Shown: one piece after another, positions 30,740 to 49,006 of the stretch
How positions within the stretch are numbered: position 1 is the first letter of the stretch
Layout of the letters: the number at the start of each line of letters is the position of its first letter
Origin: Nitrospirota bacterium
GTDB taxonomy: Bacteria; Nitrospirota; Nitrospiria; Nitrospirales; Nitrospiraceae
Direction: 5' to 3'
Length of the DNA stretch: 64,000 bases
Assembly (NCBI GenBank): GCA_963701855.1
Contig: CAVPBK010000009.1
Span: 320,001 to 384,000 of the forward strand
Notes under the pieces: model-generated
What the model saw: only the letters and a program-made list of their open reading frames with translations
Told to the model about the DNA's origin: nothing
Databases searched by the model: none
Translations under genes and position numbers: made by a program

Positions 30740-31831
30740 TTACACAGTCCGTGGTACGAGATGCACCGCGCCGGCTTTGATCGCCGCCCCAACGACTAAG
30801 CCTGTTTTAAGACCAAGTTCTTCTCTAGCCCCTCTCGTAATCACCGCCCGCAGAGGAAAACCGCAATCAACCGTGACCGTCACTAACACACCCTGCGGCA
30901 GCATCTCGGTCACACGACCGGACAGATGATTACGCGCGCTGGTGACACCGCTCCCTGCCTGCTCGAGCAAGACATCTTCTGCGCGAATGCAAACGTAGAC
31001 GGCTGAACCGCTCACGTCCGCGCCTAAGCCCTTCAGCGCCGTCCCGTTCACCAACACGGTCGCCAACCCGTTGTCGTTCGCGACCACTTGCCCCTGCACG
31101 ACGGTCTCAATACCCACGATCTGCGCCACCTCCGCATTGGCCGGCCTAGAGAACACTTCTTGCGGCGAACCAGTTTGAAGGATCGTTCCTCCCTGCATCA
31201 CCGCAATGACATCCCCTAACGTCAAGGCCTCAGCCCAATCGTGCGTGACGACGACAGAAGGAATTTTCAACTGTGTCAACAGGGCTCGCAGTTCTCCACT
31301 CAAGCGACTGCGTGTCGGAACATCCAAAGCAGACAGGGGTTCATCGAGTAATAAGAGCTGCGGTCGCCTGGCAATCGCACGCGCAAGCGCCACACGTTGC
31401 TGTTGCCCACCCGACAACTGCGCCGTTTTGGCCTGTTCGAGCCCTTGAAGTTGCAGCAAGGCGATCAGCTCACGGACACGCTCCCGTCGTGCCACAGCCG
31501 GCAGATCGCTCAATCCATATTCAATATTGCCGGCCACCGTATGCGTGGGAAAGAGCGCATAATCCTGCGACATGTAGCCGACCCGTCGCGCTTGCGGCGA
31601 GAGCCGAATGTTGGACGCCGCATCGACCCAGGTTGTCGAACCGAATTGAATCCGTCCCTCTTCCGGCCATTCCAGCCCGGCAAGACAACGCAGCAGGGTC
31701 GTTTTCCCAGATCCTGATGGCCCGAAGAGAATCAACACGCTCGGAAGGTCGATCGGCAACGTGAGCCGTGCCGCAGCAGTAAACCGACCGAGAAAAGTCT
31801 TGCGGCAATCAACCGTCAACGCTGCGGCCAT
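30740..31831 (-). CDS. modC: Molybdate ABC transporter ATPase with TOBE domains
   Basis: GPSGSGKT, LSGGQQQR, LLLDEP, SARNHL. Confidence 0.9.
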   Translation of the reverse strand: MAAALTVDCRKTFLGRFTAAARLTLPIDLPSVLILFGPSGSGKTTLLRCLAGLEWPEEGRIQFGSTTWVDAASNIRLSPQARRVGYMSQDYALFPTHTVAGNIEYGLSDLPAVARRERVRELIALLQLQGLEQAKTAQLSGGQQQRVALARAIARRPQLLLLDEPLSALDVPTRSRLSGELRALLTQLKIPSVVVTHDWAEALTLGDVIAVMQGGTILQTGSPQEVFSRPANAEVAQIVGIETVVQGQVVANDNGLATVLVNGTALKGLGADVSGSAVYVCIRAEDVLLEQAGSGVTSARNHLSGRVTEMLPQGVLVTVTVDCGFPLRAVITRGAREELGLKTGLVVGAAIKAGAVHLVPRTV

Positions 31832-32490
31832 ACCGCCCACACCTTTCGATTCATCGCGTAGACCAGCAGCAGCACGCCATAGGAGACCGCCAGTAATAAC
31901 AGCGCCGTCTTGGCGGCCCCGGCATAGTTGAGCGCTTGCACTTCATCATAAATATCTATCGAGACCGTCCTCGTCTCCCCTTCAATGTTGCCGCCGACCA
32001 TGAGCACCACGCCAAACTCCCCGAGTGTATGGGCAAAGCTCAGCACTGCACCGGTCACGAGTCCCGCCGCCGACAGCGGAGCAATCAGACGGAAAAAGGT
32101 CTTGAGCTTCGACACTCCAAGCGTCCAGGAGGCTTCGATCAACCGGCGATCGACTTGTTCAAAGGCTGCGGTAAATGGTTGCACGGCAAACGGAAGGCTG
32201 TAGAGAATCGACGCGAGGAGTAGACCTTCGAAGGTAAACGGAAGCGGATGCCCGACCACGTCGGTGTAGAATCGACCGACCGGGCTGTGGGGACCGATCG
32301 CGACTAGAATATAAAACCCCAGCACCGTCGGAGGCAACACGAGCGGGAGCGCGACCACTGACTCGACGATAAACTTCCAGCGCCACTTTGAAAAAGTGAG
32401 CCAGTAGGCGATAGGCAGCCCGACGACCAGCAAGACACCGGCCGTCAGGCAAGCCAGTTTGAACGTGACCCAGATCGCCACCCAATTCAC
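31816..32490 (-). CDS. modB: Molybdate ABC transporter permease
   Basis: LPLVLPPTVLGFY, FAHTLGEFGVVLMVGGNI. Confidence 0.95.
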   Translation of the reverse strand: MNWVAIWVTFKLACLTAGVLLVVGLPIAYWLTFSKWRWKFIVESVVALPLVLPPTVLGFYILVAIGPHSPVGRFYTDVVGHPLPFTFEGLLLASILYSLPFAVQPFTAAFEQVDRRLIEASWTLGVSKLKTFFRLIAPLSAAGLVTGAVLSFAHTLGEFGVVLMVGGNIEGETRTVSIDIYDEVQALNYAGAAKTALLLLAVSYGVLLLVYAMNRKVWAVWPQR

Positions 32491-32838: not shown

Positions 32839-33423
32839 CTACTTGGATTGATCGAAGCCGATCATGAATCCTTCCGGACCGGCGACCTCCAGCCGTATCA
32901 CCCGACGATCTCCTCGCATCACGTCCGGCTTCAACCGAAAACGCACAATCTTTGCACGATCCTCTTCGCTCGATTGATAGACGGACGATGCCCGATATGC
33001 CTGTTCTAGTTCGCCCTGTAACGCGGCGACGTCCGAAACCATAAAATTGATTTGCACCCAGCCGGTCGGACGCGGCGTTCGCAAATCCTGCCGAACCACG
33101 ATTAAGACGCCTCGGTAACAATAGCCACGGAGACTGTCCACTTGGGGATGATCCAGGCTCTGGACAACCGGCGCGTGCAAAAAGGCTTCAAAGAATTGCT
33201 CGTGACGCTTGATATCGGACGTTTCAACCTGCACGCTTTCAAGTCCCTCATGTGAACGCGGGCCCTGAATCGCCGCTGTGCACGGTCGGTCTTGAGAAGC
33301 CGCGGCCTGAGGATGCTGAGTCTGCGGCACGTCTTGAGCCGACGCAGCCGTTACCCCAATCAGGAGCGCGCTCGCACTCATTAGATATGCAAGTCTGTGC
33401 ACACTTCTTCCTGCTACTTGCAT
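32839..33423 (-). CDS. Exported protein with a possible VOC/glyoxalase fold
   Basis: Signal peptide; VETSDIKRHEQFF, INFMVSDV and GPEGFMIGF resemble VOC elements. Confidence 0.6.
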   Translation of the reverse strand: MQVAGRSVHRLAYLMSASALLIGVTAASAQDVPQTQHPQAAASQDRPCTAAIQGPRSHEGLESVQVETSDIKRHEQFFEAFLHAPVVQSLDHPQVDSLRGYCYRGVLIVVRQDLRTPRPTGWVQINFMVSDVAALQGELEQAYRASSVYQSSEEDRAKIVRFRLKPDVMRGDRRVIRLEVAGPEGFMIGFDQSK

Positions 33424-33743
33424 CGGAACTCGATTCCCCAGCGTCGTCCGCTGACTTCCCCTTCCGCTCCTCCCACGGTGGATATACTACTGTATCCCTC
33501 CACTTCCCCGTCTCTGAGAACTATGTAGCCAGAGGGACACTTTCTCTCTATGAGCTTCAACGCGTCCCTGCGATGTGGTGATCCCATTGGGCCGCCCCGG
33601 TCTTCCTTGAACAGGTAGGTCACTACGCCTGACTGCTCCGTTTCGTGGGTCAGCAGGACCGCTTGGGAACAGCCAACGCTGATGGCGAACGCGGCCAAGC
33701 CTATCACCTTCGTCCATTGCTTAACTAGGCAGCGTGAATCCAT
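33414..33743 (-). CDS. Small lipoprotein
   Basis: Lipobox SVGC; KCPSGY and WGIEFRCK; start uncertain. Confidence 0.7.
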   Translation of the reverse strand: MDSRCLVKQWTKVIGLAAFAISVGCSQAVLLTHETEQSGVVTYLFKEDRGGPMGSPHRRDALKLIERKCPSGYIVLRDGEVEGYSSISTVGGAEGEVSGRRWGIEFRCK

Positions 33744-34527
33744 AGCGCTTCATGATCTCCTGTCCTTGGGGGCCTTTGATGAATTCAAGAAACTGTCTCG
33801 CGGCTTCTGGATTTTTGGACTGCTTCAAGATCACAACTCCCTGTTCCAGAGGCAAGTGTGCAATCGCCGGAATCTCCCAGTACTGCCCGGCGGCCTTCAT
33901 CGCTGGTGCTGTCGCCAAGGACAACGCAACGATTCCAATGTCGCAGGCGCCGGATTCAATGAATTGCGCCGTTTGCGAAATATTCTCCCCCAAAATGAGC
34001 TTGTCTTTGACCTGGTCATAGACCTTGAAGTATTCCATCGAGGCCACTGCCGCCCTGCCATAGGGAGCATGTTTGGGATTGGCGATGGCGATCTTCTTGA
34101 TCGTCGGTTCACGCAAAATCTCCAGCCCCTTGGAGAGATCGAGGTGCGAATCATTGCCGGTCCACAAAACAATCCGCCCGACGGCATAGGGATAGAGCGA
34201 TCCAGGCACGACTAGGCCGGCCTCTTCCAGTTTCTTGGGGTAGCCAATGTCGGCTGAAAAGTAGAGGTCAAACGGCGCGCCATTTTGAATTTGCGAGAAG
34301 AAATTGCCCGAGGATCCCAACGTGAGTTTCACATGCTCTCCGGTTTGCTGTTCGAACGTTGGGATCAACTCCTTGAATGCAAAGCTGAGATCGGAGGCAG
34401 CGGCTACCGTCAACTCTCCCGCCTGCCCTGACGGGGCCATGGAAAAGCCCATGATCATGAACAGGGCACACAGTACAGGCACTATGAGTACCCTCATTCT
34501 CCACATGTAACCCTCGTTGACTCCCAT
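33721..34527 (-). CDS. modA: Molybdate ABC transporter substrate-binding protein (canonical)
   Basis: AAASDL, GSSG, GAPFDLYFSA, ANPKHAPYG, GENISQ. Confidence 0.95.
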   Translation of the reverse strand: MGVNEGYMWRMRVLIVPVLCALFMIMGFSMAPSGQAGELTVAAASDLSFAFKELIPTFEQQTGEHVKLTLGSSGNFFSQIQNGAPFDLYFSADIGYPKKLEEAGLVVPGSLYPYAVGRIVLWTGNDSHLDLSKGLEILREPTIKKIAIANPKHAPYGRAAVASMEYFKVYDQVKDKLILGENISQTAQFIESGACDIGIVALSLATAPAMKAAGQYWEIPAIAHLPLEQGVVILKQSKNPEAARQFLEFIKGPQGQEIMKRYGFTLPS

Positions 34528-35064: not shown

Positions 35065-36885
35065 TTAGAAGAAGATTTGATACTGGACACGGATCATATT
35101 TTCAATCAGCGTCCCTGCATTGACATCTAATGGAACCTTACCGGATGGGAAGTTGGTACCGACAGCCGGCAACGGAGCGCTTCGGCCGATCGCGAACCCG
35201 CCTTGCCCCATGGCTATATTGCTATAGGTAAGCATGATCTGGTGGTCATAGGTTCCGCTCAGAAACCAGTTGAGAGACACGTCCACTTCCTTGATCAGAT
35301 CACTGGCTGAATGGGTATCAGGATCCCAGTAGGCGTACCGTGCCGCCACCTCCAATTGTCTCGGAATCAAATAGTAGCCTGATTGCACCGACCAGCCAGT
35401 TGAATTACCAAACTGCCCTGGAGCAAATGCGGTACAAGGCCCCCCTTGTACCGCCGTCTGTAAACATGGAAGCCCCTTCTCATGCCGGGTTATATTCCTG
35501 AACCAATATTCGGCTTGCAGGGAAAAGCCCCGATATTTGAAGACATAATCCAATGTTTCGGTGGAAAAGTCGACGACTCCCTGCCCAAGAATTCTCCCAT
35601 TTCCAGTTAGGGCCAGCGATCGCCTGAGATTTAGATTTGCCAGATCGATGCCGACAAAACTGTTATCCGTGCTGGTGTTAAGCCCGGGATTATAGGCATA
35701 GCCTCCCCCGATCACCATTTGAGGAGCCTCCGAGTAGGCAATATCACCTTCGCCATAGCCCGCCCGGCCCAAGATATTCCACTGCAACCGCGCCGTATAC
35801 ATGAGCTGGTTGATGCTGGTACGGACATTGGCGTTGAGATTCCGGTTATTCGCCGGGCAGCCTGCCGGAGAGGGAAACGGATTTCCTGAGGTTTGACCTC
35901 CCGGGCACCCCACCGTGGGCTCTTCGCTGCCGAATTGAGCAAACCGGTTCACGAGAGGACCTTCGCCATTGAAGACGCCGAAATAATAATTAACCGGGTA
36001 CACCTCTTCATCATTCATGATCGTGATGCCGACGTCTCGGCGGTTCAGCCCGTTGGCCGTAAACGCATCCATCGCAAGGGCGCGAGCGGCAAACTGCATC
36101 GCCGCCGTCGAATTAATCTGCGACCGATTGAAGTAAACCTTGTACTGGCCAAGTTGCACATTCAACCATGGGATATGAGTGCTCATCACGGTCGCATCAA
36201 GCATCGTCAAGGCGCCCGGAGCCTGCGCATTTTCTGCCGTCTCACCCGCGATTTGAAATAAGTATTTTAGTTCCGGGCTGAAGAGATGGCCCATGAAGTA
36301 GAGCCGCGCGGTCCTCAAATTGAACGTTGAGGCTTCATCGATAGTGCGATTGGCCCGGTAATCACCGAAGACGCCCAGCAGTTCCGGAAAATCTTTGGAG
36401 TCTCCTGTCGTACGCCAGGCATCATTTCTCGATCGCTGCGTATAGCGGGTTGCAAAGCGACCGCGGATTTTTAACAAGAAGGCGTTATCATTCATGGAAA
36501 AGTTGAAGCCACGATCATACCAGGCCTTAAAACTCGGCTGGAGCAAATAGGTTCGCTCCTGCGACGCTCTGACGACCGCATCGTATTCTTCCTGCGTGAT
36601 GGACCCCTGTTTGACAGCTCGCTCCAGGAGCAGTTTGGTCGCCGGATCCATACTCTCAACAAAGACATACTTCCCGTCCTTCTCCACCAATTTTCCCGCA
36701 TCAGCGGCGAGAGCCAGTTGTGGACCGAGCCATACCGCACAGGCCAAGCACAGAGCGAATCCAATATTCTTGTTCCACTGCGGGACAGCAATTGGAATGA
36801 CGGATAATATCCGAATGAACCTGAATGCCTTCCACCTGCCACGACCCTTCATAAATCCATCTCTACAAATATGCTCTGGAATCAA
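35065..36885 (-). CDS. OprO/OprP-like anion-selective porin (start uncertain)
   Basis: FNLRTARLYFMG, GQYKVYF, RRDVG, LEVAARY, C-terminal YQIFF. Confidence 0.8.
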   Translation of the reverse strand: MIPEHICRDGFMKGRGRWKAFRFIRILSVIPIAVPQWNKNIGFALCLACAVWLGPQLALAADAGKLVEKDGKYVFVESMDPATKLLLERAVKQGSITQEEYDAVVRASQERTYLLQPSFKAWYDRGFNFSMNDNAFLLKIRGRFATRYTQRSRNDAWRTTGDSKDFPELLGVFGDYRANRTIDEASTFNLRTARLYFMGHLFSPELKYLFQIAGETAENAQAPGALTMLDATVMSTHIPWLNVQLGQYKVYFNRSQINSTAAMQFAARALAMDAFTANGLNRRDVGITIMNDEEVYPVNYYFGVFNGEGPLVNRFAQFGSEEPTVGCPGGQTSGNPFPSPAGCPANNRNLNANVRTSINQLMYTARLQWNILGRAGYGEGDIAYSEAPQMVIGGGYAYNPGLNTSTDNSFVGIDLANLNLRRSLALTGNGRILGQGVVDFSTETLDYVFKYRGFSLQAEYWFRNITRHEKGLPCLQTAVQGGPCTAFAPGQFGNSTGWSVQSGYYLIPRQLEVAARYAYWDPDTHSASDLIKEVDVSLNWFLSGTYDHQIMLTYSNIAMGQGGFAIGRSAPLPAVGTNFPSGKVPLDVNAGTLIENMIRVQYQIFF

Positions 36886-37572
36886 AAATGAATGCCGGGA
36901 AGAGACGCTGATTCGAATGGCTGCTTAGGGCGACGGGGCTGTTTTGAGAAACTTTCAGATAGTCGACGCCTCGCCAGTCGGTCTTAGGGTCATCCAGATA
37001 AAATCGACCCGGCTCGAAATATAGGAGGTAGGTCTTCGCAGGGGTCCAGGGCGTTGGATAGTTGTAATCGTAGGGATCGGATGTTCTGACCGGCTGCTGA
37101 ACATGAAAGTAATCGATGGTCAGATGGAGTAGTTGATCGTGCACCGCCACCCACCCGCCTGTGACATCGCGTCGGAACCGCGGGTTCATACCGGGAGCGA
37201 AGAGTTCGAAATAGACTCGTGCCTCAGGCCCCACCTTCTGCAGCGCATCGGCAAGTTGCGGAGCCAGTACCTGTAATTCGTCTTCGCGGAAGATCTTCTT
37301 CGGGGGAGTTTCTTCGGCATACCACCGAAGCGGCAGGCGCTGTTGCTCGCGCAGCGAAAAGCCGCGGAGTATTGCCGCCACCTGTTCGGTGTAATCTGAA
37401 CAGGATGCGTATAGCTGGCCGGCGTGATTTCCCGTTGCAGCATGACGGACAGCCGTTGGTCCTCATGCACCACCGTCGTCGTATAGGGAATCCGGGCACA
37501 TCCCAGACCAATCAACACGAGAACGGCAGCCAACAGAGTTGCTGGCTTTCTCATAACGTTCATCTGGGGCAT
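36863..37572 (-). pseudogene. Lipoprotein (paralog of 43832-44554) with a 1-nt frameshift near 37388
   Basis: Lipobox GLGC...HPVQIT, shift, then VAAILRG...RVYF...TGGW; may be a sequencing error. Confidence 0.7.
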
Positions 37573-37614
37573 GGTGAACCTCCTTCTAGTTTTCCTTACT
37601 CCATCATACATATA

Positions 37615-38496
37615 CTAATGACTGGTATAATTGACATATTGGGTAAAAAAATATTCCGGCTCGTCACTTGCTTGCCCAGGCAGTCCATAGCCCAATCCCT
37701 TTAGGATACTTTGGGCTTCTGGAGATTGGGAAAACGTCAGAAACTCTTCACAGAGCGGGCGATTGGGGCAGAACCGTTCCATTGCCAGAGAATGGGTGAT
37801 TGGACGGACAGCCTGCGCCGGTGCGACGGCTACGACGCGAACTCTCTCCCGTTTATCATAGGCGTCCGGCCCGAAGATGATGCCGACGTCCGCTTGTCCG
37901 TTGAGCAGGCGATCCAAGACACCGCGCGCATCCATTGCCACATCTAACCGTCCTTTCAGTGCCCCTGTGATCCCCAAGGCCTTGAAGAGTTCGCTCGTCT
38001 GCTGCCCGACCACAGTCAGCCCAGGATCTGCGACAGCTACTCGTAGCCGAGCATCCTGGGCAAGCGCCTCAAACGATGACGGCGCATCGACGAGCGATTC
38101 AGGCACGACCAACACTAAGGAGACAGTGGCATACGGCCGGCGCGTCTGTGGGAGCACATAATACTTCTGTTCCAAGCGAGTGATCAGCTCATCGCCGCCC
38201 GGTGCAATGATGTGGATGGGGCCCGAGCCGATGAAGTATTGTCCCGAGGAATGATTCTCCATCGCTGCGACCGTGCGACGCAGATCAAAATCTGAGTCGA
38301 AATAGAGACGTACCTTCACATCCGGGTGGGTCGTCTCAAATGCGCGACCCAAGGCTTCCAGGGGAATGGCCAAGCTGGGTGACCCCGCGATCACCAGCAG
38401 CTCGCTCGCTGAGGCTGAACCGATTCTTCCGGCTATCAGAGCAACGACGATCAACACGGTCATTTTTACGAAATTTTGCATGGATGTCCTGAGCAC
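37615..38496 (-). CDS. Atypical ModA-like substrate-binding protein
   Basis: ModA-fold pattern (VAVADP, GQADVGII), but GSPSL/DSDF replace AAS/GSSG. Confidence 0.8.
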   Translation of the reverse strand: MLRTSMQNFVKMTVLIVVALIAGRIGSASASELLVIAGSPSLAIPLEALGRAFETTHPDVKVRLYFDSDFDLRRTVAAMENHSSGQYFIGSGPIHIIAPGGDELITRLEQKYYVLPQTRRPYATVSLVLVVPESLVDAPSSFEALAQDARLRVAVADPGLTVVGQQTSELFKALGITGALKGRLDVAMDARGVLDRLLNGQADVGIIFGPDAYDKRERVRVVAVAPAQAVRPITHSLAMERFCPNRPLCEEFLTFSQSPEAQSILKGLGYGLPGQASDEPEYFFTQYVNYTSH

Positions 38497-38520
38497 GAAC
38501 CTCTGTCACTCTCGGCTCAT

Positions 38521-39690
38521 CTACAATGTTTGCAGCTTGCCGGTGTCCCTCGTGTCGTAACCCCCGAGCGCCTTGATCTCTGCGCGAAACGAGCGGCTGA
38601 CGATAGTGTCAAACAGGTTGGCCAGCGTTGGATGGGACTTCAGATAGGCTTTGGGAACCACGAGGTCATATCGAGCGGCTTGAAGCGGCACAAAATCGAG
38701 GCCAAAGAGTTGTGCTGCAGACCGGATCCCAATCCCGACATCAGCTTGATGATTTGTGATGGTCCTAGCCACTTCGAAATGAGACGACACGGTTCTCTCG
38801 TACCCTCGTACTTGATTCGGATCGATCCTCGCCGCACGCAACCGCTGATCCAGCAACAGCCTGGCCCCAGCTCCCTCTTCTCGATTCACAAGTGTGATGT
38901 TAGGATCGGCTACATCGCTGACTGCACGGATAGACTTGGGATTACCTGCTCGAACGAGCAAGCCCTCTTCCCAGGTCGCAAACGTGACGACTTCATAGTT
39001 TGAACCTTTCAGCGCACGTCGGAGGAACGGCAGGTTTGATTCCCCGGTCGTCGGGTCAAAAAGATGCAGGCCTGCGACATGAACCTCGCCCTGCTGCAAA
39101 GCCCGAAGCGCCGCCGTGCTCCCCATTGTCCAGCCCACGATGGAGGTCTGATCCTTCCGCTGATGCAAATGCGCGCCGACGAGAAAGATCGCGGGATCAC
39201 AACCAGCGACAGAAATTTCCTGTTCAATCGCCTGACAATCGCGCGAGAGGTTTACTCGCACCATGGCACCCGATGCCTGACCATGGACATCCGTCGCGTA
39301 GCCATCGGCAGCCACCGTATACGAAAGCGCCTCACCCAATTCTGAGACGGGTCGCACGATCATACGGGTCCCTACCCTGGCCACCTTCACACGAATCGTC
39401 GAGATCTTCTCATCGCGCTGAGGGAAACCCCCGATCAGTTTCCCTTCAATGGCATCATGCGCCTCTGCAAGACTGAAGAGATCTTCCACGCGACAGCCCA
39501 ACACAGCAGCCATTCGAAGCGCCACTGCGGTGGTGGGTAAGTAGAGGTGAGATTCGATTGCCGAGACGGCCTGCCTGGTGATTCCGGATTTTCCGGCAAG
39601 TTCACCCTGTGAAAGACCTTGAGTGACTCGAATTCGTTTTAGATGATTCTGGAAATGGTCCGTAGATTCCGCTCGGTGAGCCTGTCCCAT
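38521..39690 (-). CDS. XRE-HTH plus PBP-like (molybdate-binding) transcriptional regulator
   Basis: LSQGELAGKSGITRQAVSAIE; AGCDPA, GSTAAL, HVAGLH, NREEGAGAR. Confidence 0.88.
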   Translation of the reverse strand: MGQAHRAESTDHFQNHLKRIRVTQGLSQGELAGKSGITRQAVSAIESHLYLPTTAVALRMAAVLGCRVEDLFSLAEAHDAIEGKLIGGFPQRDEKISTIRVKVARVGTRMIVRPVSELGEALSYTVAADGYATDVHGQASGAMVRVNLSRDCQAIEQEISVAGCDPAIFLVGAHLHQRKDQTSIVGWTMGSTAALRALQQGEVHVAGLHLFDPTTGESNLPFLRRALKGSNYEVVTFATWEEGLLVRAGNPKSIRAVSDVADPNITLVNREEGAGARLLLDQRLRAARIDPNQVRGYERTVSSHFEVARTITNHQADVGIGIRSAAQLFGLDFVPLQAARYDLVVPKAYLKSHPTLANLFDTIVSRSFRAEIKALGGYDTRDTGKLQTL

Positions 39691-39712
39691 AGTGATGCAA
39701 TGGATAGCATGT

Positions 39713-39734
39713 ATACTTGCTACTTTGCAAGTAT
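39713..39734. promoter_or_regulatory. Perfect 8-bp inverted repeat, putative operator
   Basis: ATACTTGC-N6-GCAAGTAT about 22 bp upstream of the regulator start. Confidence 0.5.
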
Positions 39735-39843
39735 GCGGTCAGTGATTATTTAAGTTCTCGTGCATTTCAGGATTGAGGTCACCGATTAAGATCTCTCTAT
39801 TTATGCAATTATAATAAGCGAAAGCAATGGATAAATTTTATTG

Positions 39844-39872
39844 TTGACAATATAGATTGACTTAGTTATAAT
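39844..39872 (+). promoter_or_regulatory. Consensus sigma70 promoter
   Basis: TTGACA(39844)-17 bp-TATAAT(39867). Confidence 0.85.
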
Positions 39873-39887
39873 ATTAAATCATTAATC

Positions 39888-40964
39888 ATGACCGGAATAA
39901 TAGGAATTAAAATAGTGCTTACACTTATCCAGCGGTTTCACTATCAAAAGCTCTTCTTGAGCTCGCTTGTCGTCGTCCTCCTCCTGACAGCGACCACGGT
40001 TCCCTCTCCGTCCTCAGCACTGGATTGGGTGCCGACTGAGGAGGAGATCAAGAAGTATCGCAAGAGCTGGAATCCCCTGTCCCACGGCCCTGTTCTCCTC
40101 CAGGCAGTCGATGTACAACCGAAAGGGCAGCTTTCAATTCGAGAATTCCTTTTCTCACAAATCGGAGAGAGCAGCTTCGGCAATCACCTCAGCTTTGCGA
40201 CTGACAGCAAAAACGGCCCAGTTCATCTCTACCAGGTGTCGCCCTCCGTCAATGCTTCCTACGGACTGACCAATCATGTCGAATTAGGTGTCGCACTTTC
40301 GATGAATTCGTTCTGGGCCACCCAAAACGGACAGAGCACGAGTTCGACCGGCGTAGGCGACACCTCGCTCATCATGAAGTACCGGCCGATCATCCAGGAC
40401 CCTGAAAGCTGGCGCCCTTCCCTTACCCATTACACGCAAGTTGTACTACCCACCAGCCGTTGGGCCGATGCAGAGAAACCACCTGGGGGGTTCACGCCCC
40501 TCGGACGACTTCCCAGTACGCGATTTGGCGAATATGGGCTGACGCAAGGGCTTATGACGCGAAAGAACCTCGAGCCCATTCGCATCAGCGCAGCCGTGTT
40601 TTATACCTACGCCGCACCCGGAGAGAACGGCGGACAGAACACCTACACCGGCGACATAGTCAACACGCGCCTGATCTATGAGCACATACTCAATGACAAG
40701 AACGGGTTCGGGTACAACATCGAAGTCAGCACCTTGCACGGGCTTACCTGGCGGGCGGACGGACACGACATCAACGCAGGACAGAGAAACGGCTTTACGA
40801 TTATCGGTGTGGAGCCTGCGCTTCAATGGAACTTTTCTCAAAACTGGTTGGTCGCCGTCGGCTGTCTGTTTACTGTTGCAGGCCAGAATGCCACCAATTC
40901 CACCTATCCAAATCTGTCTGTCTTTTGGATGTGGGACAAGAGTGGAAAGATTACCATGCGATAG
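39888..40964 (+). CDS. Exported / outer-membrane beta-barrel-like protein (SphA/MetA-pathway-like); start may be GTG 39916 region or later
   Basis: Signal-like segment, YGLTNHVELG, TGVGDTSLIMKY. Confidence 0.65.
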   Translation: MTGIIGIKIVLTLIQRFHYQKLFLSSLVVVLLLTATTVPSPSSALDWVPTEEEIKKYRKSWNPLSHGPVLLQAVDVQPKGQLSIREFLFSQIGESSFGNHLSFATDSKNGPVHLYQVSPSVNASYGLTNHVELGVALSMNSFWATQNGQSTSSTGVGDTSLIMKYRPIIQDPESWRPSLTHYTQVVLPTSRWADAEKPPGGFTPLGRLPSTRFGEYGLTQGLMTRKNLEPIRISAAVFYTYAAPGENGGQNTYTGDIVNTRLIYEHILNDKNGFGYNIEVSTLHGLTWRADGHDINAGQRNGFTIIGVEPALQWNFSQNWLVAVGCLFTVAGQNATNSTYPNLSVFWMWDKSGKITMR

Positions 40965-40996
40965 CCCGTCACACGAGAGCGAGCAGGACCGTCATC

Positions 40997-41179
40997 ATGG
41001 GAAGTACAGAGCAATCAGATCGGCAGGACCATCAAACAATCGAGCACGCGATTCGACTCGCACTCAGAGGCATCCGCTTTGGATCCGTTGAAATCATCGT
41101 TCACGATTCCAAAGTCGTGCAGATTGAGCGCAAGGAGAAGACACGTTTTGACGGCGAAGGTTCTCCGTCCACGCGCTGA
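40997..41179 (+). CDS. YezD/OscA (DUF2292) small protein
   Basis: IRFGSVEIIVHDSKVVQIERKEKTRF. Confidence 0.9.
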   Translation: MGSTEQSDRQDHQTIEHAIRLALRGIRFGSVEIIVHDSKVVQIERKEKTRFDGEGSPSTR

Positions 41180-41228
41180 GGTCAGGATGATTCGTCACAG
41201 CTATTGTCGTTGCTAAAGGAGAACAACG

Positions 41229-41305
41229 GGCCGTCCAGATGACTGGAGGCCAAGACCGACTGTTTCAATCGTCAAATTGAGAACTGACCGGACCACCGGA
41301 GGTTC
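41229..41305 (+). ncRNA. Tandem hairpin, candidate cis-regulatory RNA
   Basis: GGCC-GT-CCAG-ATGA-CTGG-A-GGCC (41229-41251) and GAACT-GA-CCGG-ACCA-CCGG-A-GGTTC (41281-41305). Confidence 0.55.
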
Positions 41306-41326
41306 ACATGTCACGGAGGGAGCGAC

Positions 41327-42970
41327 ATGAGAATTTCCGGTGTGTGGTTTCTGGCAATTGCACTGCTCACGCTGCTGGCAGGCCTGCCGCTACAGGCTCG
41401 GGCGGTGGAAGAAGGCCAGCTTCAGAAGAAAGACGGCCGATGGGAGTATCTGCCGAGTGAAGACCCCGGCCTCAAGTATCTACTCCTCAAGGGAATCATT
41501 ACCCAAGATGAGTACGACAAGGGGCTTAAGACCTTGGAGACCAGAGAACGGATCGTGAAACCGAACTTCAACATCGACGTCAACAACGGCTTGAATATCC
41601 GCGTCGGCTCGAAATTCATGCTCAAAATGCGGCTGCTCACCCAGGTGCGCTACAGCTACAGTACCTTTAATAATGCCTGGGGGACTGTCGGAGACTCGAG
41701 GAACGAAGAAATTCTGGGAGGCCAGGTCGAATTTCGAGCTTTTAAACGCCAGAGTAATTCGAGTCAGTTTTCGGTTCCCCGGGCCCAACTCCAGTTCCTG
41801 GGGTTCGCCTTCGATCCCGACCTTCGCTACAACGTGTCTTTGCAGATGGATTCAACGACATATAACCAAGAAGGCGGTAATGGAAGAGCCACCCTCCAAG
41901 ATGCGTACATCTCTTCCTGGCATATCCCATGGGCAACCGCCCAGTTCGGCCAGCAACGGGTCTGGTTCAATCGCGCCTTGATCAGTTCTTCGGCCACGTC
42001 CACGTTCGCCGACAACATGATCGTGCAGAATGTGTTCGCCTCCAACCTTCAGAGCAGTCGTGATGTCGGGATCAACATCCTGAGCGATGAGGATCAATAC
42101 AAATTCAACTATGCCTTTGGCATTTGGGGAGGCGTCGGGGCGAATCTCGATCGGGACGGCACCGCTGTCAGCCAAAGGGTGCTGCCCCCTACCGGAACTC
42201 CAGGAGCGCCTAATTCTGGGACAACCAGAACTTACAACTACGACACCCGATTCATGAGCGGCGAATTAATGTATACGGCCCGGGTGCTGTACAAAATTGC
42301 CGGCAATCCGGGGTATGGGCAGGGCGACATCCTGAACTCCCGCACACTGCAATCTGCCATCGCCTTCGGGTACGCGTACGACCCAGGTCAGAACTATCTG
42401 AGTGCCACACGCTCCGATATTGTCGATCGCGCATACCGCCAGGCAGTGGCCAAAGCCATGAACGGCCGACTCCTTGGCGGAGGTATCTACGATTTTCAGA
42501 CCTATGAAACGGATTTCATTGCGAAGTACCAAGGCTGGTCGCTCCAAACAGAAGGGTACTACAGACACCAACGGGTACGGAACAAGGATGCCGGTACCCT
42601 AGCATTCGACAACGGAACGATCCCGACGAGCCCGCTCGCCGTAGGTCCCCCGGTGGATCTCGGCCAAGCCTGGGGCTGGTACGTGCAAGTCGGCAAGTAC
42701 ATCATTCCCAGGAAGCTCGAACTGGCCGTTCGGTATGGAGTACTGGATCCGTCCACCAAACAAAAAGACGATCTGACCAAAGAGTTCGGCGCCGCCATCA
42801 ACTATAGCTTTGACGGCACCTACAACAATCGGCTCATCATCGACTACTCCAACATCACTATGGGAAGCGGCGGGCGCGCACCGGACCGGTTCCCGTTCGA
42901 GAATCAACCGGGATTCGGTCGCGATCTCGTCGAAAACCGCATCAATGTGCAGTACCAGTTCTATTTCTAA
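41327..42970 (+). CDS. OprO/OprP-like anion-selective porin (paralog of 35065-36885)
   Basis: Signal peptide, KGIITQDEYD, GQQRVWFNR, SRDVG, C-terminal YQFYF. Confidence 0.82.
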   Translation: MRISGVWFLAIALLTLLAGLPLQARAVEEGQLQKKDGRWEYLPSEDPGLKYLLLKGIITQDEYDKGLKTLETRERIVKPNFNIDVNNGLNIRVGSKFMLKMRLLTQVRYSYSTFNNAWGTVGDSRNEEILGGQVEFRAFKRQSNSSQFSVPRAQLQFLGFAFDPDLRYNVSLQMDSTTYNQEGGNGRATLQDAYISSWHIPWATAQFGQQRVWFNRALISSSATSTFADNMIVQNVFASNLQSSRDVGINILSDEDQYKFNYAFGIWGGVGANLDRDGTAVSQRVLPPTGTPGAPNSGTTRTYNYDTRFMSGELMYTARVLYKIAGNPGYGQGDILNSRTLQSAIAFGYAYDPGQNYLSATRSDIVDRAYRQAVAKAMNGRLLGGGIYDFQTYETDFIAKYQGWSLQTEGYYRHQRVRNKDAGTLAFDNGTIPTSPLAVGPPVDLGQAWGWYVQVGKYIIPRKLELAVRYGVLDPSTKQKDDLTKEFGAAINYSFDGTYNNRLIIDYSNITMGSGGRAPDRFPFENQPGFGRDLVENRINVQYQFYF

Positions 42971-43010
42971 ACGCATGCTGAACGTTATCACGATGACCAG
43001 GAGGTTCTTT

Positions 43011-43832
43011 ATGACACGCCCAAGTGTTCTGTTGAGAAGTCTATTGTTCCTTAGTGTCTTGACCACAACCGTGTGGACCGCGCCGCCTGTGCAGGCGGCG
43101 CCTGAGACCGTCACGATCGCGGCTGCCAACAGCTTGAGGGAGGCCTTTCGACAAATACTCCCGCTCTTCGAAGCGCACAATAAGGACATCAATGTGCGAG
43201 TTATCTACGGGCCCTCTCAAACCCTCAGCAAGCAAATCGAAGAAGGCGCACCGATCGATGTGTTCCTGCCTTCGCAGGTTGAAGAAATCGACCAACTCGA
43301 GGAAAAAGGGCTCGTCATTCAAGGCACAAGACGTGTCTATGCCGGTACTTCGTTGGTCCTGATCGCCGGCACTGAGCTCCCGGCGCCAATCGCGTCGGTC
43401 CAGGATCTTCGCACAACTCTGATCCGGTACATTGCCATCGGCGACCCGAAAACCTCGTCGGTGGGAAAAGTAGCGGCTCAGTATCTCAAGTACAGCAAGC
43501 TCGACTCCCAACTCAAGTCGCAACTTGTCTATGGCGAGCATTCGCGAGCCGTCCTGGACCTGGTCGCCAAGGGCGAAGCCGATCTCGGCATCGTCTACCG
43601 CACAGACGCCGTATCGAATAAGAAGATCCGTATTCTCGACGAGGCCCCGGTGGACTCGCATTCACCAGTCCGCTACGGAGTCGCTGCAGTCTGGACCGCA
43701 AAGAACATCTCGGGCGCAGGAGATTTCATCAATTTTCTGGGGAGACCCCAGATCCAAACGCTCTTGCAAGACTACGGCTTCGATCGCATCGCCGAGTCGT
43801 CCGGCGTCGCTCAAAGACGGGAGGGACAATAA
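43011..43832 (+). CDS. ModA-like substrate-binding protein (non-canonical)
   Basis: AAANSL, GPSQTL, GAPIDVF, IAIGDP, GEADLGIVYRTDA; AGGAGG RBS. Confidence 0.85.
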   Translation: MTRPSVLLRSLLFLSVLTTTVWTAPPVQAAPETVTIAAANSLREAFRQILPLFEAHNKDINVRVIYGPSQTLSKQIEEGAPIDVFLPSQVEEIDQLEEKGLVIQGTRRVYAGTSLVLIAGTELPAPIASVQDLRTTLIRYIAIGDPKTSSVGKVAAQYLKYSKLDSQLKSQLVYGEHSRAVLDLVAKGEADLGIVYRTDAVSNKKIRILDEAPVDSHSPVRYGVAAVWTAKNISGAGDFINFLGRPQIQTLLQDYGFDRIAESSGVAQRREGQ

Positions 43833-44554
43833 TGAATCGCCACCAATACAATTTGACGCGTGGGTCGGCATGGCCCCTGCGCGCACTGTTCCTCATCGTC
43901 GGTCTCTCCATCGCCGCCGGTTGCGCGAGCCAACCTATCTCGCCATCGAGGACGGTCTACGAGGCTGGGTTGAATACGGTCCGGTTGGAGCAGGACCCTG
44001 ACTCCACGTCCAATGCGCATCCTGCCACGTTGACGGCAACTGAAGTCGGCACGTTGCTCCGGGGGGTCCGCGCATCGGAGCGGCGGAACATCGTTCACCG
44101 CCTCATTTTCGGCCAAGCTGATCAAACCAGGGCATTCCGGAAAGAAGAGATCGCCGTGCTGGCGTTGCCTCTTTCAACAGCGCTCTCTCTGGCTGAGCCG
44201 ACAGAACGTGTGTACTTCAACTTGAGTCATGCCACGGATCAGGGAGATCAGGAAACCACCACGGGCTGGATCTCCATCCAAGGGCCGATTCTGCACCTGA
44301 TCATCAGCGCCGTACACACCAGGCATAGCCCCGGTCCCGATATCAGCAAGTATGACCGTCAACTGCCGAACATTCCGGAGGCCTCGGCATTGTATGACGT
44401 GACGTTCGAGCCGGAGTATTATCTAGCCAAGGTGAGTTCGTCGCCCCGTTTCTGGGCGCCGGATCAGCGGGAAGAGTTGCAGATTCTATATCAGGATGCG
44501 CTTGCCGGGTTGACCGTTCAGCCCGCCCCAGAGCGCGAAGGAAAGAAGCCTTAG
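43832..44554 (+). CDS. Conserved lipoprotein
   Basis: Lipobox AAGC; NAHPATLT...LLRG, RVYF, TTGW; translationally coupled (TAATG). Confidence 0.82.
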   Translation: MNRHQYNLTRGSAWPLRALFLIVGLSIAAGCASQPISPSRTVYEAGLNTVRLEQDPDSTSNAHPATLTATEVGTLLRGVRASERRNIVHRLIFGQADQTRAFRKEEIAVLALPLSTALSLAEPTERVYFNLSHATDQGDQETTTGWISIQGPILHLIISAVHTRHSPGPDISKYDRQLPNIPEASALYDVTFEPEYYLAKVSSSPRFWAPDQREELQILYQDALAGLTVQPAPEREGKKP

Positions 44555-44582
44555 TCACAGCCGTGAGTGGTTGGCGCCGAGC

Positions 44583-44613
44583 GAATGGCGGCAGGAATGT
44601 CCTGCTGCCATTC
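44583..44613. other. Intergenic 13-bp stem-loop
   Basis: GAATGGCGGCAGG-AATGT-CCTGCTGCCATTC; no T tract. Confidence 0.55.
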
Positions 44614-44634
44614 ATCGAAGAGGCAAAGAGGTCA

Positions 44635-44949
44635 ATGAGTATCCTTGTTGTCGGTGGCGATTCAGCTGAGATGTTCCGGCAGCAGACCGGCGGCGGGCAT
44701 GGATACGTCGAGCATTGGAGCGGTCGTAAGAACCGCGACATGGCAAAGTCCATTCCCAAAGATACGGAAGCAGTGGTCGTCGTGCTGGATCGGGTGAGCC
44801 ATGGACTGGCTCGCAAGGTCCGAACCGAAGCGACACGTCGCGGCCTTCCCGTCTTCTTTCAAAAGCGAGCACGGCATGCGAGTCCGATGGATCATGACCC
44901 CATGGATTTGGCCCAATGGCTGAGCAAGACCTCGGAGATCAAGAAGTAA
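44635..44949 (+). CDS. DUF2325-family protein
   Basis: MSILVVGGD, HWSGR, VVLDRVSHGL, GLPVFF. Confidence 0.8.
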   Translation: MSILVVGGDSAEMFRQQTGGGHGYVEHWSGRKNRDMAKSIPKDTEAVVVVLDRVSHGLARKVRTEATRRGLPVFFQKRARHASPMDHDPMDLAQWLSKTSEIKK

Positions 44950-45039: not shown

Positions 45040-46062
45040 ATGATGTTGAAGCCGTTCGTTCTCACGCTTGCGCTCCTGACCGGAGCCTTGGGATTCACGT
45101 CGTCTATCCAGGCGGCAGGATCCGTTTCCATCCTGAACGTCTCATACGATCCGACACGCGAACTCTACCAGGAGTTCAATGTGGCGTTCGCCAAACACTG
45201 GTTGGCCAAGACGGGCCAGACCGTCAAAGTCTTGCAATCCCACGGAGGATCGAGCAAGCAGGCACGAGCTATCATCGATGGCTTGGAGGCCGACGTCGTG
45301 ACGCTGGCGCTGGCCTACGATATCGACGCCATCTCCGAAAAGGCCGGGCTGCTTCCAGCAAACTGGCAGAGTCGTCTTCCCAACAACAGCGCACCCTACA
45401 GCTCGACGATCACGTTCCTGGTCCGCAAGGGCAATCCCAAGGGCATCAAGGATTGGAACGACCTGGTCAAACCAGGAATCTCCGTCATCACCCCAAACCC
45501 CAAGACCTCCGGTGTCGCCCGCTGGAACTACTTGGCTGCATGGGGCTATGCTCTGAAACAATCCGGCGGCGATGAAGCCAAAGCGCAGGAATTTGTCCGG
45601 CAACTTTTTAAGAACGTGCCGGTGCTCGACTCGGGCGCCCGCGGCGCCACAACCACCTTCGTGGAGCGGGGCATCGGCGACGTTCTGATTAACTGGGAAA
45701 ACGAAATCTTGCTGAGCACCAAAGGCTCGGGCAAAGACAAGTTCGATATCGTCGTGCCGCCAATCAGCATCCTGGCAGAGCCGACGGTCAGCGTCGTAGA
45801 CAAGATCGTGGACAAGCGAGGCACCAGGCAAGTAGCTCAAGCCTATCTGGAATATCTCTACTCTGAAGAAGGCCAGGACATTGCCGGCAAAAACAACTAC
45901 CGCCCGCAGCTTCCATCAGTTGCCGCCAAATATGCTACGAATTTCCCGTCGGTGGAGCGGTTCACGCTACAAGAGGTCTTCGGCAACTGGCAGAAGGCGC
46001 ACAAGGCGCACTTTGCCGATGGCGCCAGCTTCGATCAAATCTATTTGCAGGGCGCAAAGTAG
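45040..46062 (+). CDS. sbp: Sulfate ABC transporter substrate-binding protein
   Basis: [31 protein letters not shown]. Confidence 0.96.
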
Positions 46063-46169
46063 CGGCGATGAGACACACTTCGCCGATGGTAAGACATGTG
46101 ATCAGCTGTACTGTTGACTCCCAACAGCCTGGATAATCGTTCCCTGCAATCGGAGGCGGTGAGAAATTC

Positions 46170-47006
46170 ATGGCTATGGTGTTGAAACAACCCAGTGTCC
46201 TTCCGGGATTCGGTCTGACTCTGGGATTTGCATTGTTCTATTTCAGCCTGATCGTCTTGATCCCCCTCAGCGGTCTCGTCGTCAAGACGACCACACTGAG
46301 CTGGGAACAATTCTGGCACACGGTGACGGAGCCGCGTGCGCTTGCCTCCTACCAGCTCACATTCGGCGCCTCATTTCTGGGGGCTTTGATCAACGGCTTC
46401 TTCGGATCGGTGGTGGCGTGGGTCCTTGTGCGATACCGCTTTCCCGGGCGCTCGATCGTGGACGCGCTCGTGGATCTGCCCTTTGCCCTGCCGACCGCCG
46501 TCGCCGGAATTGCCTTGACCGCCATCTATTCGTCGAATGGATGGATCGGACGCTATCTCGAACCGCTGGGTCTCAAAGTCGCCTTTACGCCCCTGGGTGT
46601 CCTGGTCGCACTGACCTTCATTGGATTGCCGTTCGTGGTGCGAACGGTGCAACCGGTGCTACAGGATCTGGACAGGGAGGTGGAGGAAGCCGCCACTACG
46701 CTGGGAGCCAATCGGTGGCAAACAATCAGGGCGGTGATTATGCCTGAACTGTGGCCTGCCTTGTTGACCGGCGTGGCAATGGCATTCGCCCGCTCCGTCG
46801 GAGAATATGGCTCGGTCATCTTCATCGCCGGCAATATGCCTCTCAAATCGGAGATCACTCCGCTGTTGATCATGACCAAACTCGAACAGTACGATTACGC
46901 CGGAGCCACGGCGCTGGGAGTCGTCATGCTCGTGGTGTCGTTTATCCTCGCCCTGATGATCAATCTCATACAATGGTGGAGCGGCAGACGCCACACCGCT
47001 CGTTAG
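46170..47006 (+). CDS. cysT: Sulfate ABC permease CysT
   Basis: DLPFALPTAVAGIAL, GEYGSVIFIAGN. Confidence 0.96.
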   Translation: MAMVLKQPSVLPGFGLTLGFALFYFSLIVLIPLSGLVVKTTTLSWEQFWHTVTEPRALASYQLTFGASFLGALINGFFGSVVAWVLVRYRFPGRSIVDALVDLPFALPTAVAGIALTAIYSSNGWIGRYLEPLGLKVAFTPLGVLVALTFIGLPFVVRTVQPVLQDLDREVEEAATTLGANRWQTIRAVIMPELWPALLTGVAMAFARSVGEYGSVIFIAGNMPLKSEITPLLIMTKLEQYDYAGATALGVVMLVVSFILALMINLIQWWSGRRHTAR

Positions 47007-47018
47007 AAAGAGAAGAGT

Positions 47019-47927
47019 ATGTCGACAGAGACCGTTGCCAGAGTAAGAAACGAAGAGTGGAACGCCTCATTGACCAGCGAAGGCGCCTTGGTTCGATGGG
47101 CACTGATTGTCGCGGCTCTCGGATACCTGACGCTCTTCCTGTTTATCCCCCTCGCAGCTGTGTTTACCGAAGCGCTGAAGAACGGACTTGAAGGCTACTT
47201 CGCCTCATTCACGGACCCGGATACCCTGTCGGCGATTCGCCTGACCTTCCTCGCCGCATCCCTGGCCGTTCCACTCAACCTCATGTTCGGCGTCTCTGCA
47301 GCCTGGGCCATCGCCAAATTCGAATTCGTCGGTAAACAGATTCTCATCACGCTCATCGACATCCCGTTGGCCGTGTCCCCCGTCATCTCGGGATTGATTT
47401 ACGTGCTGCTCTTCGGAGCGCAGGGCTGGGTGGGCCCCTGGCTGGCCGAACACGACATCAAGATCATCTTCGCCCTGCCGGGCATCGTGCTCGCCACCAC
47501 CTTTGTCACCGTTCCATTTATCGCGCGCGAGCTGATCCCATTGATGCAATCACAGGGACGAGAGGAAGAAGAGGCGGCGCTCACGCTGGGCGCGTCGGGA
47601 TGGCACACGTTTATTCGAGTCACTCTCCCGAATATCAAGTGGAGCCTGCTCTATGGGGTCATTCTCTGCAATGCACGGGCGATGGGAGAATTCGGAGCGG
47701 TCTCCGTCGTGTCAGGCCATATTCGGGGGCTCACCAATACGATGCCGCTTCATGTCGAGATCCTGTACAACGAGTATAACGCCGTCGGGGCCTTCGCGGT
47801 GGCCTCGCTCCTCACCTTGTTGGCCATTGTGACGCTTGTCGTCAAAACAGTCATCGAACGGAAATCCGCTTCATCACGATCGACTCATGATCCTGCATCA
47901 ACCACGCAGCCAGGGAGTCCATCGTGA
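47019..47927 (+). CDS. cysW: Sulfate ABC permease CysW
   Basis: [23 protein letters not shown]. Confidence 0.96.
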
Positions 47928-49006
47928 GTATCCAGGTCGATCACGTCACCAAACGATTCGGCAGCTTCACCGTCCTGAATGACGTGAGCCTTCACGTACA
48001 GACTGGAGAACTCGTGGCGCTCCTCGGTCCATCCGGTTGCGGCAAGACCACCCTGCTCAGAATTCTGGCTGGATTGGAGAGGCCCGACCAGGGACGAATT
48101 CTCTTGCATGGCGACGAGGTAACGGAACAGCGCATCACCGACCGGCGCGTGGGATTCGTGTTCCAGCATTACGCGTTGTTCCGGCATATGACCGTCGCAG
48201 AAAATGTCGCATTCGGACTGACCGTGCTTCCCCGCCCGCAACGGCCTTCTCCTGACCAGATCCAGAAGAAAGTCCATGACTTGCTGTCATTGGTCCAGCT
48301 GCAGGCGATGGCCGACCGCTATCCAAATCAGCTTTCCGGAGGGCAACGTCAACGCGTGGCCTTGGCCAGAGCGCTGGCCGTGGAACCGAAAATGCTTCTG
48401 CTTGATGAACCCTTTGGCGCACTGGACACCAAAGTCAGAAAGGAACTGAGACGCTGGCTCCGGCGACTCCATGACGAATTGCACATTACAAGTATCCTAG
48501 TCACGCATGACCAGGAAGAAGCCTTAGAAGCGGCAGACCGTATCGTGGTGTTGAACCAGGGGCATATCGAGCAGATCGGCACGCCGGAGGAAGTCTATGA
48601 ACACCCGGCAACACCGTTCGTGTACCGCTTCCTCGGCGATGTGAACGTGTTTCATGGCCGAATTGCCCACGACGAGACTGCGCACGAAGAGGCGGACGGG
48701 CAACCTCCTGCAGGGAGAGACCCTTCGAACGAACATGAGGTCACCTTTGTCCGTCCCCACGACCTGGAACTCAGCCGAAGCCGGACCACGACGACACAGC
48801 TCGAGGCGACCGTACGATTTGTCATCACAGCCGGATCGCGCGTCCGCCTCGAGCTGGTCTCGAAAAACTCTCCGCAAACCATTGAGGTTGAACTCACCAA
48901 AGAGCGTTATCGCGAGTTACGGCTTCAACAAGGCGATGTGGTCTTTGTGCACCCGAAACAACTACAAGTATTCAAAATGCCCGGCCCCTTATCTGGGAGG
49001 CCGTGA
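47924..49006 (+). CDS. cysA: Sulfate ABC ATPase CysA
   Basis: [34 protein letters not shown]. Confidence 0.96.

Follow-up and report, generated by a model that had tools for sequence, protein, structure and literature searches.

Do two similar three-gene sets, each encoding an outer-membrane porin, a ModA-type periplasmic binder and a lipoprotein beside an ATP-binding cassette (ABC) importer, belong to an uptake system for nutrient oxyanions in Nitrospira? The two sets lie in a 64,000-nucleotide stretch of a Nitrospirota genome (the window; bases 320001–384000 of contig C9, GenBank CAVPBK010000009.1). The source genome is 4.3 Mb in size and 97% complete, and its nearest relatives are metagenome-assembled genomes of Nitrospira and Nitrospiraceae. 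We refer to the porin, lipoprotein and ModA-type binder genes as porL, lipL and mlL for the left set and as porR, lipR and mlR for the right set. Nitrite oxidation by Nitrospira depends on a molybdenum enzyme, and the habitats are often scarce in molybdenum, sulfur and phosphorus; to our knowledge, the passage of trace oxyanions across the Nitrospira outer membrane has not been described, and a repeated module of porin, binder and lipoprotein would offer a testable model for it. We found that the porin, binder and lipoprotein genes constitute a conserved, duplicated unit, and that similarly built units occur for three oxyanion classes. We read the two sets as copies of a recurrent uptake module of the order Nitrospirales, the left one serving molybdate or tungstate and the right one a sulfur oxyanion, with a probability of roughly 0.55.

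All six open reading frames (ORFs) were located where an earlier reading, made from the sequence alone (the sequence-only reading), had placed them, and its claim that the two trios are paralogous was borne out for the porins (36% identity over 556 columns, E 5e-107), the ModA-type binders (27%, E 3e-25) and the lipoproteins (29%, E 4e-14). The motifs that it had described as shared were present, KDGK/KDGR...G(S/I)ITQ(E/D)EYD in the porins and HPxxxT...LRG, RVYF and GW in the lipoproteins, but those of lipL are split across frames in the assembly. Canonical modA (TIGR01256, 208.8 bits) with modB and modC, and sbp (NF008022, 525 bits) with cysT, cysW and cysA, flank the trios.

Recurrence of the three families in Nitrospirales

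The trio had been proposed to be a separate module, and the gene neighbourhoods agreed with this proposal, since the three families co-occur beyond the window. In a comparison of 28 Nitrospira loci retrieved with lipR as the query, the right-type porin, binder and lipoprotein were found together in 26, and the remaining two loci end at contig edges; the left trio was found in five, one of which is a divergent copy. The source genome encodes four porins of this family, each beside a lipoprotein-family gene and an oxyanion binder gene. Two of them belong to the ModA-type trios of the window and the other two to phosphate-type sets, one at locus L032 (an OmpR-type regulator, a PstS-like binder, the lipoprotein and a convergent Porin_O_P porin) and one at locus L035 (a porin-like protein, a 152-amino-acid (aa) protein, the lipoprotein, pstS and pstC). 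Lipoprotein and Porin_O_P porin genes also converge within a Pst/PhoU/Ppx neighbourhood in two genomes of a second family. In several phosphate-type loci, a PstS-like binder gene attached to pstCAB is accompanied by a second one beside the porin and lipoprotein genes, and these loci repeat the extra-binder pattern of the window.

We then considered a larger set of 40 porin loci, drawn from 32 genomes of four Nitrospirales families, which was hand-picked from the porin match list and omitted the four porins of the window's own genome, two genomes fetched before, most of the close porR and porL orthologues and some further genomes of one genus. Within the stretch of roughly 15 kb examined per locus, a lipoprotein-family gene was found at 24 loci, a binder gene at 24 and both at 17, while about 4% of ~15-kb stretches would hold a lipoprotein gene by chance, as estimated from 11 paralogues in 4.3 Mb. 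Given the kinship among the genomes and the selection of loci by hand, such counts illustrate the pattern and do not constitute a statistical test.

The porins were provisionally assigned to the OprO/P type, partly through paralogues. The Pfam model Porin_O_P (PF07396; gathering threshold 20.9 bits) matched porL partially, over residues 173–288, at 30.8 bits, and gave no match to porR at E ≤1. The porin at L032 matched the model at E 2.7e-30 and those at L045 and L046 at E 3.5e-15 and 8.2e-17, respectively; the latter two also matched porL (E 2.5e-26 and 1.5e-30) and thereby bridge to Porin_O_P. An alignment of 26 such porins showed an N-terminal segment, L..LL.K..G.IT.EEY, as the most conserved feature outside the barrel. 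We rejected its assignment to the SHOCT domain (PF09851), which residues 52–68 of porR resemble at 14.0 bits (E 0.043), under the threshold of 27. The porin profile had no match at E ≤1 among the sequences of solved chains.

Neighbourhood by descent within one lineage, with no shared function, would be a simple explanation for this recurrence, and it fits with all of the evidence coming from one class and with many of the sampled genomes being close kin. However, one genome contains the three-family set at four non-homologous sites, with binders of different families, and the set also appears across four families of the order, where gene order varies. Such synteny without function is already disfavoured, and we consider it very improbable.

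Three further features were noted in these loci. In five phosphate-type sets, a second conserved lipoprotein of ~180 aa is encoded between the porin and the lipoprotein (L138:8440-8970, L139:8272-8847, L145:8530-9060, L146:7470-8015 and L151:8327-8929; mutual identity 42–77%), and a nearby 192-aa protein in L035 has a weak match to Pfam Slp. PstC-like permeases of ~765 aa with a WD40/beta-propeller-like region before BPD_transp_1 are encoded at L035:8932-11220 (+) and L045:248-2542 (+). In family f3 (L159-L162, L164 and L166), the gene for the best-scoring porin adjoins that for a ~1050–1210-aa protein, with no lipoprotein or binder gene in the fetched stretch.

Binders and candidate anions of the two sets

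Both extra binders had been called atypical ModA-like proteins. Their motifs do deviate from the canonical ones, but by score both are members of the ModA family, with mlR at 160.9 bits and mlL at 72.0 bits against the cut-off of 62.5 bits for the NCBIfam model TIGR01256, and Pfam SBP_bac_11 matched them at E 1e-51 and 2e-32, respectively. The serines and the tyrosine through which ModA contacts the oxyanion lie, at E. coli positions, in the motifs AAAS, SSG and GIVY. When aligned to ModA 8zj6 and 4kd5, mlR and its orthologues retain AAANSL, GPSQTL and GIVYRTDA. The corresponding motifs of mlL and its orthologues are AGSPSL, D-S-(D/G)-(F/L)-D-L and GIIFGPDA (with DSDFDL in mlL itself), so that mlL differs from ModA by DSDF in place of GSSG and F in place of the GIVY tyrosine, as well as by a 12-residue insert and a CPNRxLC motif; the canonical modA of the window also lacks this tyrosine (GIVALSLA). 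The nearest relative of mlL is mlR, and mlR is closer to the canonical modA (120 bits) than to mlL (77–89 bits). Only four SBP_bac_11-type proteins are encoded in the genome, namely modA, mlL, mlR and sbp. Signal peptides were found on mlL and mlR, and lipoboxes on lipL and lipR.

Judging from its gene context, the left set most likely serves molybdate or tungstate. Its operon adjoins modA, the gene for a secreted protein and modBC, and begins with the gene for a regulator with an N-terminal helix-turn-helix (HTH) domain, HTH_3 (E 3e-11), and a C-terminal PBP_like domain (E 7.5e-63). From this domain make-up only, we take the regulator to be of the TunR type; TunR-type regulators of Desulfovibrio, which Kazakov and colleagues are said to have reported in J Bacteriol in 2013, likewise combine HTH and PBP_like domains and reportedly lie near molybdenum or tungsten transport genes. 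At L004:4136-5704 (-), an AlgE-type porin (PF13372, E 2.9e-57) occupies the place of the left trio, with the regulator on one side and modA on the other, suggesting that the molybdate operon includes an outer-membrane channel in both arrangements. In archaea, the PBP_like domain is fused to MoeA and predicted to bind molybdenum or tungsten (PMC11733289).

The right set most likely serves a sulfur oxyanion, again judging from its neighbours. A gene for a DUF2292 protein was found upstream of porR in 21 of the 28 loci and is single-copy in the source genome; in a plasmid collection, both DUF2292 matches (on Novosphingobium and Paenibacillus replicons) were directly after sbp-cysT-cysW(-cysA). 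The papers found to mention DUF2292 were uninformative. Downstream of lipR, sbp was found in 20 of the 28 loci, with gaps of about 50–130 bp in eight, and another ABC system was found in four, including a set for an NMT1/SsuA-type binder, an ATPase and a permease at L026.

An alternative role for the binders was weighed here, in which mlR would bind molybdate or tungstate and thus shield the sulfate route or scavenge molybdenum through a sulfur-regulated porin, or in which the binders might signal anion status. Molybdate competes with sulfate for uptake and activation, mlR and its orthologues keep serine and tyrosine motifs of the ModA type, and in 18 of the 28 loci the TunR-like regulator gene is the divergent upstream neighbour of the right unit. 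On the other hand, the right set is flanked by DUF2292 and sbp-cysTWA or SsuA-type genes, and L026 and L020 carry it with the regulator not nearby. We regard this guarding or sensing role as improbable.

The lipoprotein family and a possible mode of uptake

No Pfam or NCBIfam domain matched the lipoprotein family. Its profile captured 1015 cluster representatives (50% identity) at E ≤1e-3, and the family was detected in 124 of the 401 sampled genomes of the phylum, all 124 from the window's own class, with no occurrence in the genomes searched from other classes of the phylum. The module would give a first function to this large family, which in our sample is seen only in the class of Nitrospira. 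The source genome encodes about 11 paralogues, and in a comparison of ten, lipR and lipL clustered together with moderate support (81/90). A narrower alignment of the family (A4) recovered a distant, tatC-linked subfamily from metagenomes and no new porin-linked contexts; among its metagenome contigs, five encoded a ModA-type binder close by, and three of these also had a porL-like porin there.

The second AlphaFold model of lipR, built from a 130-row alignment, had a predicted local distance difference test score (pLDDT) of 87.9 and a predicted template modelling score of 0.80. Searches of the PDB with this model gave no clear match (a best E of 0.21 in Foldseek and, in VIA, a best Z of 4.0 at a root-mean-square deviation of 5.7 over 89 residues), and the same was true of the first model, which had a pLDDT of 68 (a best E of 0.23 in Foldseek against pdb and a best Z of 3.9 in the wide VIA search); the lack of a clear match is no proof of a novel fold.

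Under the module reading, each unit would consist of an anion porin of the OprO/P superfamily with the N-terminal segment LL.K..G.IT.EEY, an extra soluble periplasmic binder and an outer-membrane-type lipoprotein, and would adjoin an inner-membrane ABC importer owning its own binding protein. Under scarcity, the anion would pass the outer membrane via the porin, and the extra binder would take it up at the periplasmic exit, or close by, before passing it to the neighbouring importer. The lipoprotein would be a porin-associated partner that anchors, assembles or organizes the uptake step. A more specific version, in which the lipoprotein is a docking subunit holding the dedicated binder at the periplasmic mouth of the porin in a three-part complex, appears unlikely to us. 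If it were true, Nitrospirales would possess a modular high-affinity capture apparatus re-used for molybdate or tungstate, sulfur oxyanions and phosphate, a porin-based counterpart of the lipoprotein-capped SusCD systems. Complex prediction with one porR monomer (residues 26–547) and lipR (residues 31–240) gave a score of 0.02, which speaks neither for nor against binding.

The same genes could also reflect ordinary redundancy, where the ModA-like proteins would be second binders for ModBC and CysTWA, the porin an ordinary specific porin and the lipoprotein a general factor of porin biogenesis or envelope anchoring with no part in transport. Both binders passing the ModA cut-off is in line with this explanation, as are the tails on relatives of the lipoprotein, which include C-terminal coiled coils, SHOCT (3/38) and a peptidoglycan-binding domain (1/38), and the location of some lipoprotein paralogues beside a non-anion porin or in an unrelated cluster (described below). 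However, the lipoprotein gene follows directly on the binder gene, whose stop it overlaps with its start in the right set, and the same order recurs with unrelated PstS-type binders, which would be hard to explain were the lipoprotein unrelated to the binder. Redundancy of this kind is conceivable, and we find it doubtful.

Several observations weigh against the module reading. In the 40-locus sample, seven loci had a binder without a lipoprotein, seven a lipoprotein without a binder, and nine neither, all nine from family f3; the relatedness of the sampled genomes and our own choice of the 40 loci count in the same direction. Two of the lipoprotein paralogues in the genome adjoin a pair of Amt and a BBP2 porin, and one lies in a cluster of tatC, a BNR propeller and a peptidyl-prolyl isomerase (PPIase), with no binder nearby, so the role of the family would be broader than oxyanion capture. 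Among 80 metagenome loci of the distant subfamily recovered with A4, the tatC / BNR-propeller / PPIase cluster was again the common setting, and class-level relatives with a single lipoprotein copy had neither a family porin nor a binder nearby. The wider family therefore argues for an envelope- or porin-related basic role that is not anion-specific. For the right set, a sulfur ligand of mlR is opposed by the retained ModA-type motifs and by the molybdenum-type regulator being the divergent neighbour in most loci, and mlR could, from its motifs, be a plain molybdate binder inside a sulfur operon. Finally, the gaps between trio and importer in the window are about 485 bp (lipR–sbp) and about 537 bp (porL–modA), so that co-transcription of the trios with the importers is not assured there.

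The closest known scheme is that of the Pseudomonas Pho regulon, in which the anion porins OprP and OprO act together with PstS-PstCAB on the same oxyanion; OprP is a trimeric 16-stranded barrel with an arginine ladder. The Nitrospira sets share with it a putative outer-membrane anion porin encoded or regulated together with a binder and an ABC importer, and porL, in part, and three paralogues match Porin_O_P. They differ in the G.IT.EEY segment of the porin, in a lipoprotein of an unrecognized family and in the binder being an extra one, and they extend beyond phosphate to molybdate- and sulfate-type loci. A second likeness is to ModABC of the E. coli type, given that mlR and mlL belong to the ModA family by score and by nearest solved structures and that the left set adjoins modA, modB and modC; in contrast to that system, a canonical modA is already present here, and mlR lies in a sulfur-transport context. 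In E. coli, Sbp and CysP both serve CysTWA, and two binders would likewise be available to one sulfate-type ABC importer in the right unit, but the second Nitrospira binder is of the ModA family and is encoded with a porin and a lipoprotein.

Taken with these likenesses, the Nitrospira sets are a real, conserved and lineage-specific variant of the scheme of a specific porin, binder and ABC importer, with a new lipoprotein component. Also new are the N-terminal segment of the porin, the extra binders of the ModA family and the repetition of the scheme for molybdenum, sulfur and phosphorus in one lineage. The presence of extra porin-binder-lipoprotein sets beside importers suggests an as yet undescribed step at the outer membrane in the uptake of nutrient anions. 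A literature search by title and abstract start returned no paper pointing to such a module; in PMC545781, the passages on a porin and on ModE concern other genes and do not describe it.

A side observation was made on one lipoprotein paralogue. At L037:7311-8861 (-) on contig C1 of genome G000, a 517-aa protein with an N-terminal CNVCH haem-type motif and a barrel-like C-terminus ending in FAY is encoded; its neighbours are a lipoprotein paralogue with a SHOCT tail, a SHOCT protein and an RND pump.

Layout of the locus and the reading frame of lipL

The features of the locus are listed in Table 1. In the order of transcription, the minus strand carries the regulator, mlL, lipL, porL, modA, the 194-aa protein, modB and modC genes, with a gap of 24 bp between the regulator and mlL. 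The plus strand carries the genes for the 358-aa protein and DUF2292, followed by porR, mlR, lipR, DUF2325, sbp, cysT, cysW and cysA, where the lipR start overlaps the mlR stop. The trios had been described as mirrored and as facing outward from one AT-rich promoter. The order is not mirrored, with binder, lipoprotein and porin on the left and porin, binder and lipoprotein on the right; the spacer is indeed AT-rich and divergent, but the regulator on the left and the 358-aa protein and DUF2292 genes on the right intervene between it and the trios. The ORF of porL extends to 36885, with the ATG at 36852 as the likely start. The long lipR–sbp gap is due to the DUF2325 gene, which was present in 14 of the 28 loci.

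Table 1. Features around the two porin-binder-lipoprotein sets (positions in the window)
Feature	Position	Strand	Evidence
modC-type ABC ATPase with TOBE	30740..31840	-	Pfam ABC_tran + TOBE; NCBIfam modC_ABC 254 bits, under the 285 cut-off
modB permease	31816..32490	-	TIGR02141 231.8 bits, cut-off 182.6
Secreted 194-aa protein between modA and modB	32839..33423	-	no Pfam/NCBIfam match
Canonical modA	33721..34527	-	TIGR01256 208.8 bits, cut-off 62.5
porL	35065..36852	-	Porin_O_P 30.8 bits, partial match; 36% identity to porR
lipL	36863..37572	-	two frames in assembly; 29% identity to lipR
mlL, divergent ModA-family binder	37615..38496	-	TIGR01256 72.0 bits; ModA as best solved relatives, E 2.5e-10
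Regulator, HTH_3 + PBP_like (PF12727), first gene of left operon	38521..39690	-	Pfam E 3e-11 and 7.5e-63
AT-rich divergent spacer, 197 bp	39691..39887		GC 0.43 in 39500-39999; sigma-70-like site
358-aa outer-membrane protein candidate	39888..40964	+	no Pfam match
DUF2292 small protein, first gene of right unit	40997..41179	+	PF10055 E 1.3e-16
porR	41327..42970	+	porL paralogue; tied to Porin_O_P via paralogues
mlR, ModA-family binder	43011..43832	+	TIGR01256 160.9 bits; best solved relative ModA 4kd5, E 8.7e-36
lipR	43832..44554	+	lipobox AAGC; no Pfam match; model pLDDT 87.9
DUF2325 protein between lipR and sbp	44563..44949	+	PF10087 E 2.5e-8
sbp, cysT, cysW, cysA sulfate ABC importer	45040..49006	+	NF008022 525, TIGR02139 432, TIGR02140 414, TIGR00968 398 bits

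In the assembly, lipL has HPVQIT in one frame and LRG/RVYF/GW in another. An intact lipL ORF was found in five relatives (L012, L023, L025, L027 and L015), reading ...HPVQITPQQVAAILRG..., and we also compared positions 36700–37700 with contigs from four public runs of one study. One public contig was identical to the window over 410 bases, a gap excepted. Near-identical contigs showed three single-base indel differences from the window within 1 kb: one base fewer at 36956 (3/3 runs), an extra base behind 37384 (2/2 runs covering the site) and an extra base behind 37671 (2/2 runs). Indels without substitutions resemble consensus errors of an assembly, and since these are absent from the near-identical contigs and lipL is intact in five relatives, the break is probably an assembly error; we treat lipL as probably intact in the organism. 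A true pseudogene was dropped as an explanation because the evidence favours assembly indels, and programmed frameshifting was dropped as being without support. As the assembly probably contains consensus indel errors, further apparent frameshifts in the genome may be artefacts.

The spacer contains TTGACA-17-TATAAT at 39844–39872, which matches the sigma-70 consensus at 12 of 12 positions, while such sites were as frequent across the whole region as in shuffled sequences. A scan of 28000–52000 with Rfam at E ≤1 returned nothing, and hence no molybdenum cofactor riboswitch was seen. The secreted 194-aa protein between modA and modB is kept in the same position in eight of the 28 related loci. 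The perfect sigma-70 consensus is only ~16 bases upstream of the start of the 358-aa outer-membrane protein candidate, which has two paralogues in the genome and a homologue beyond modC in genome G083. The atlas neighbours of this protein are named 'putative transporter', and PF13557 was found on 21% of one cluster, which we note as a lead only.

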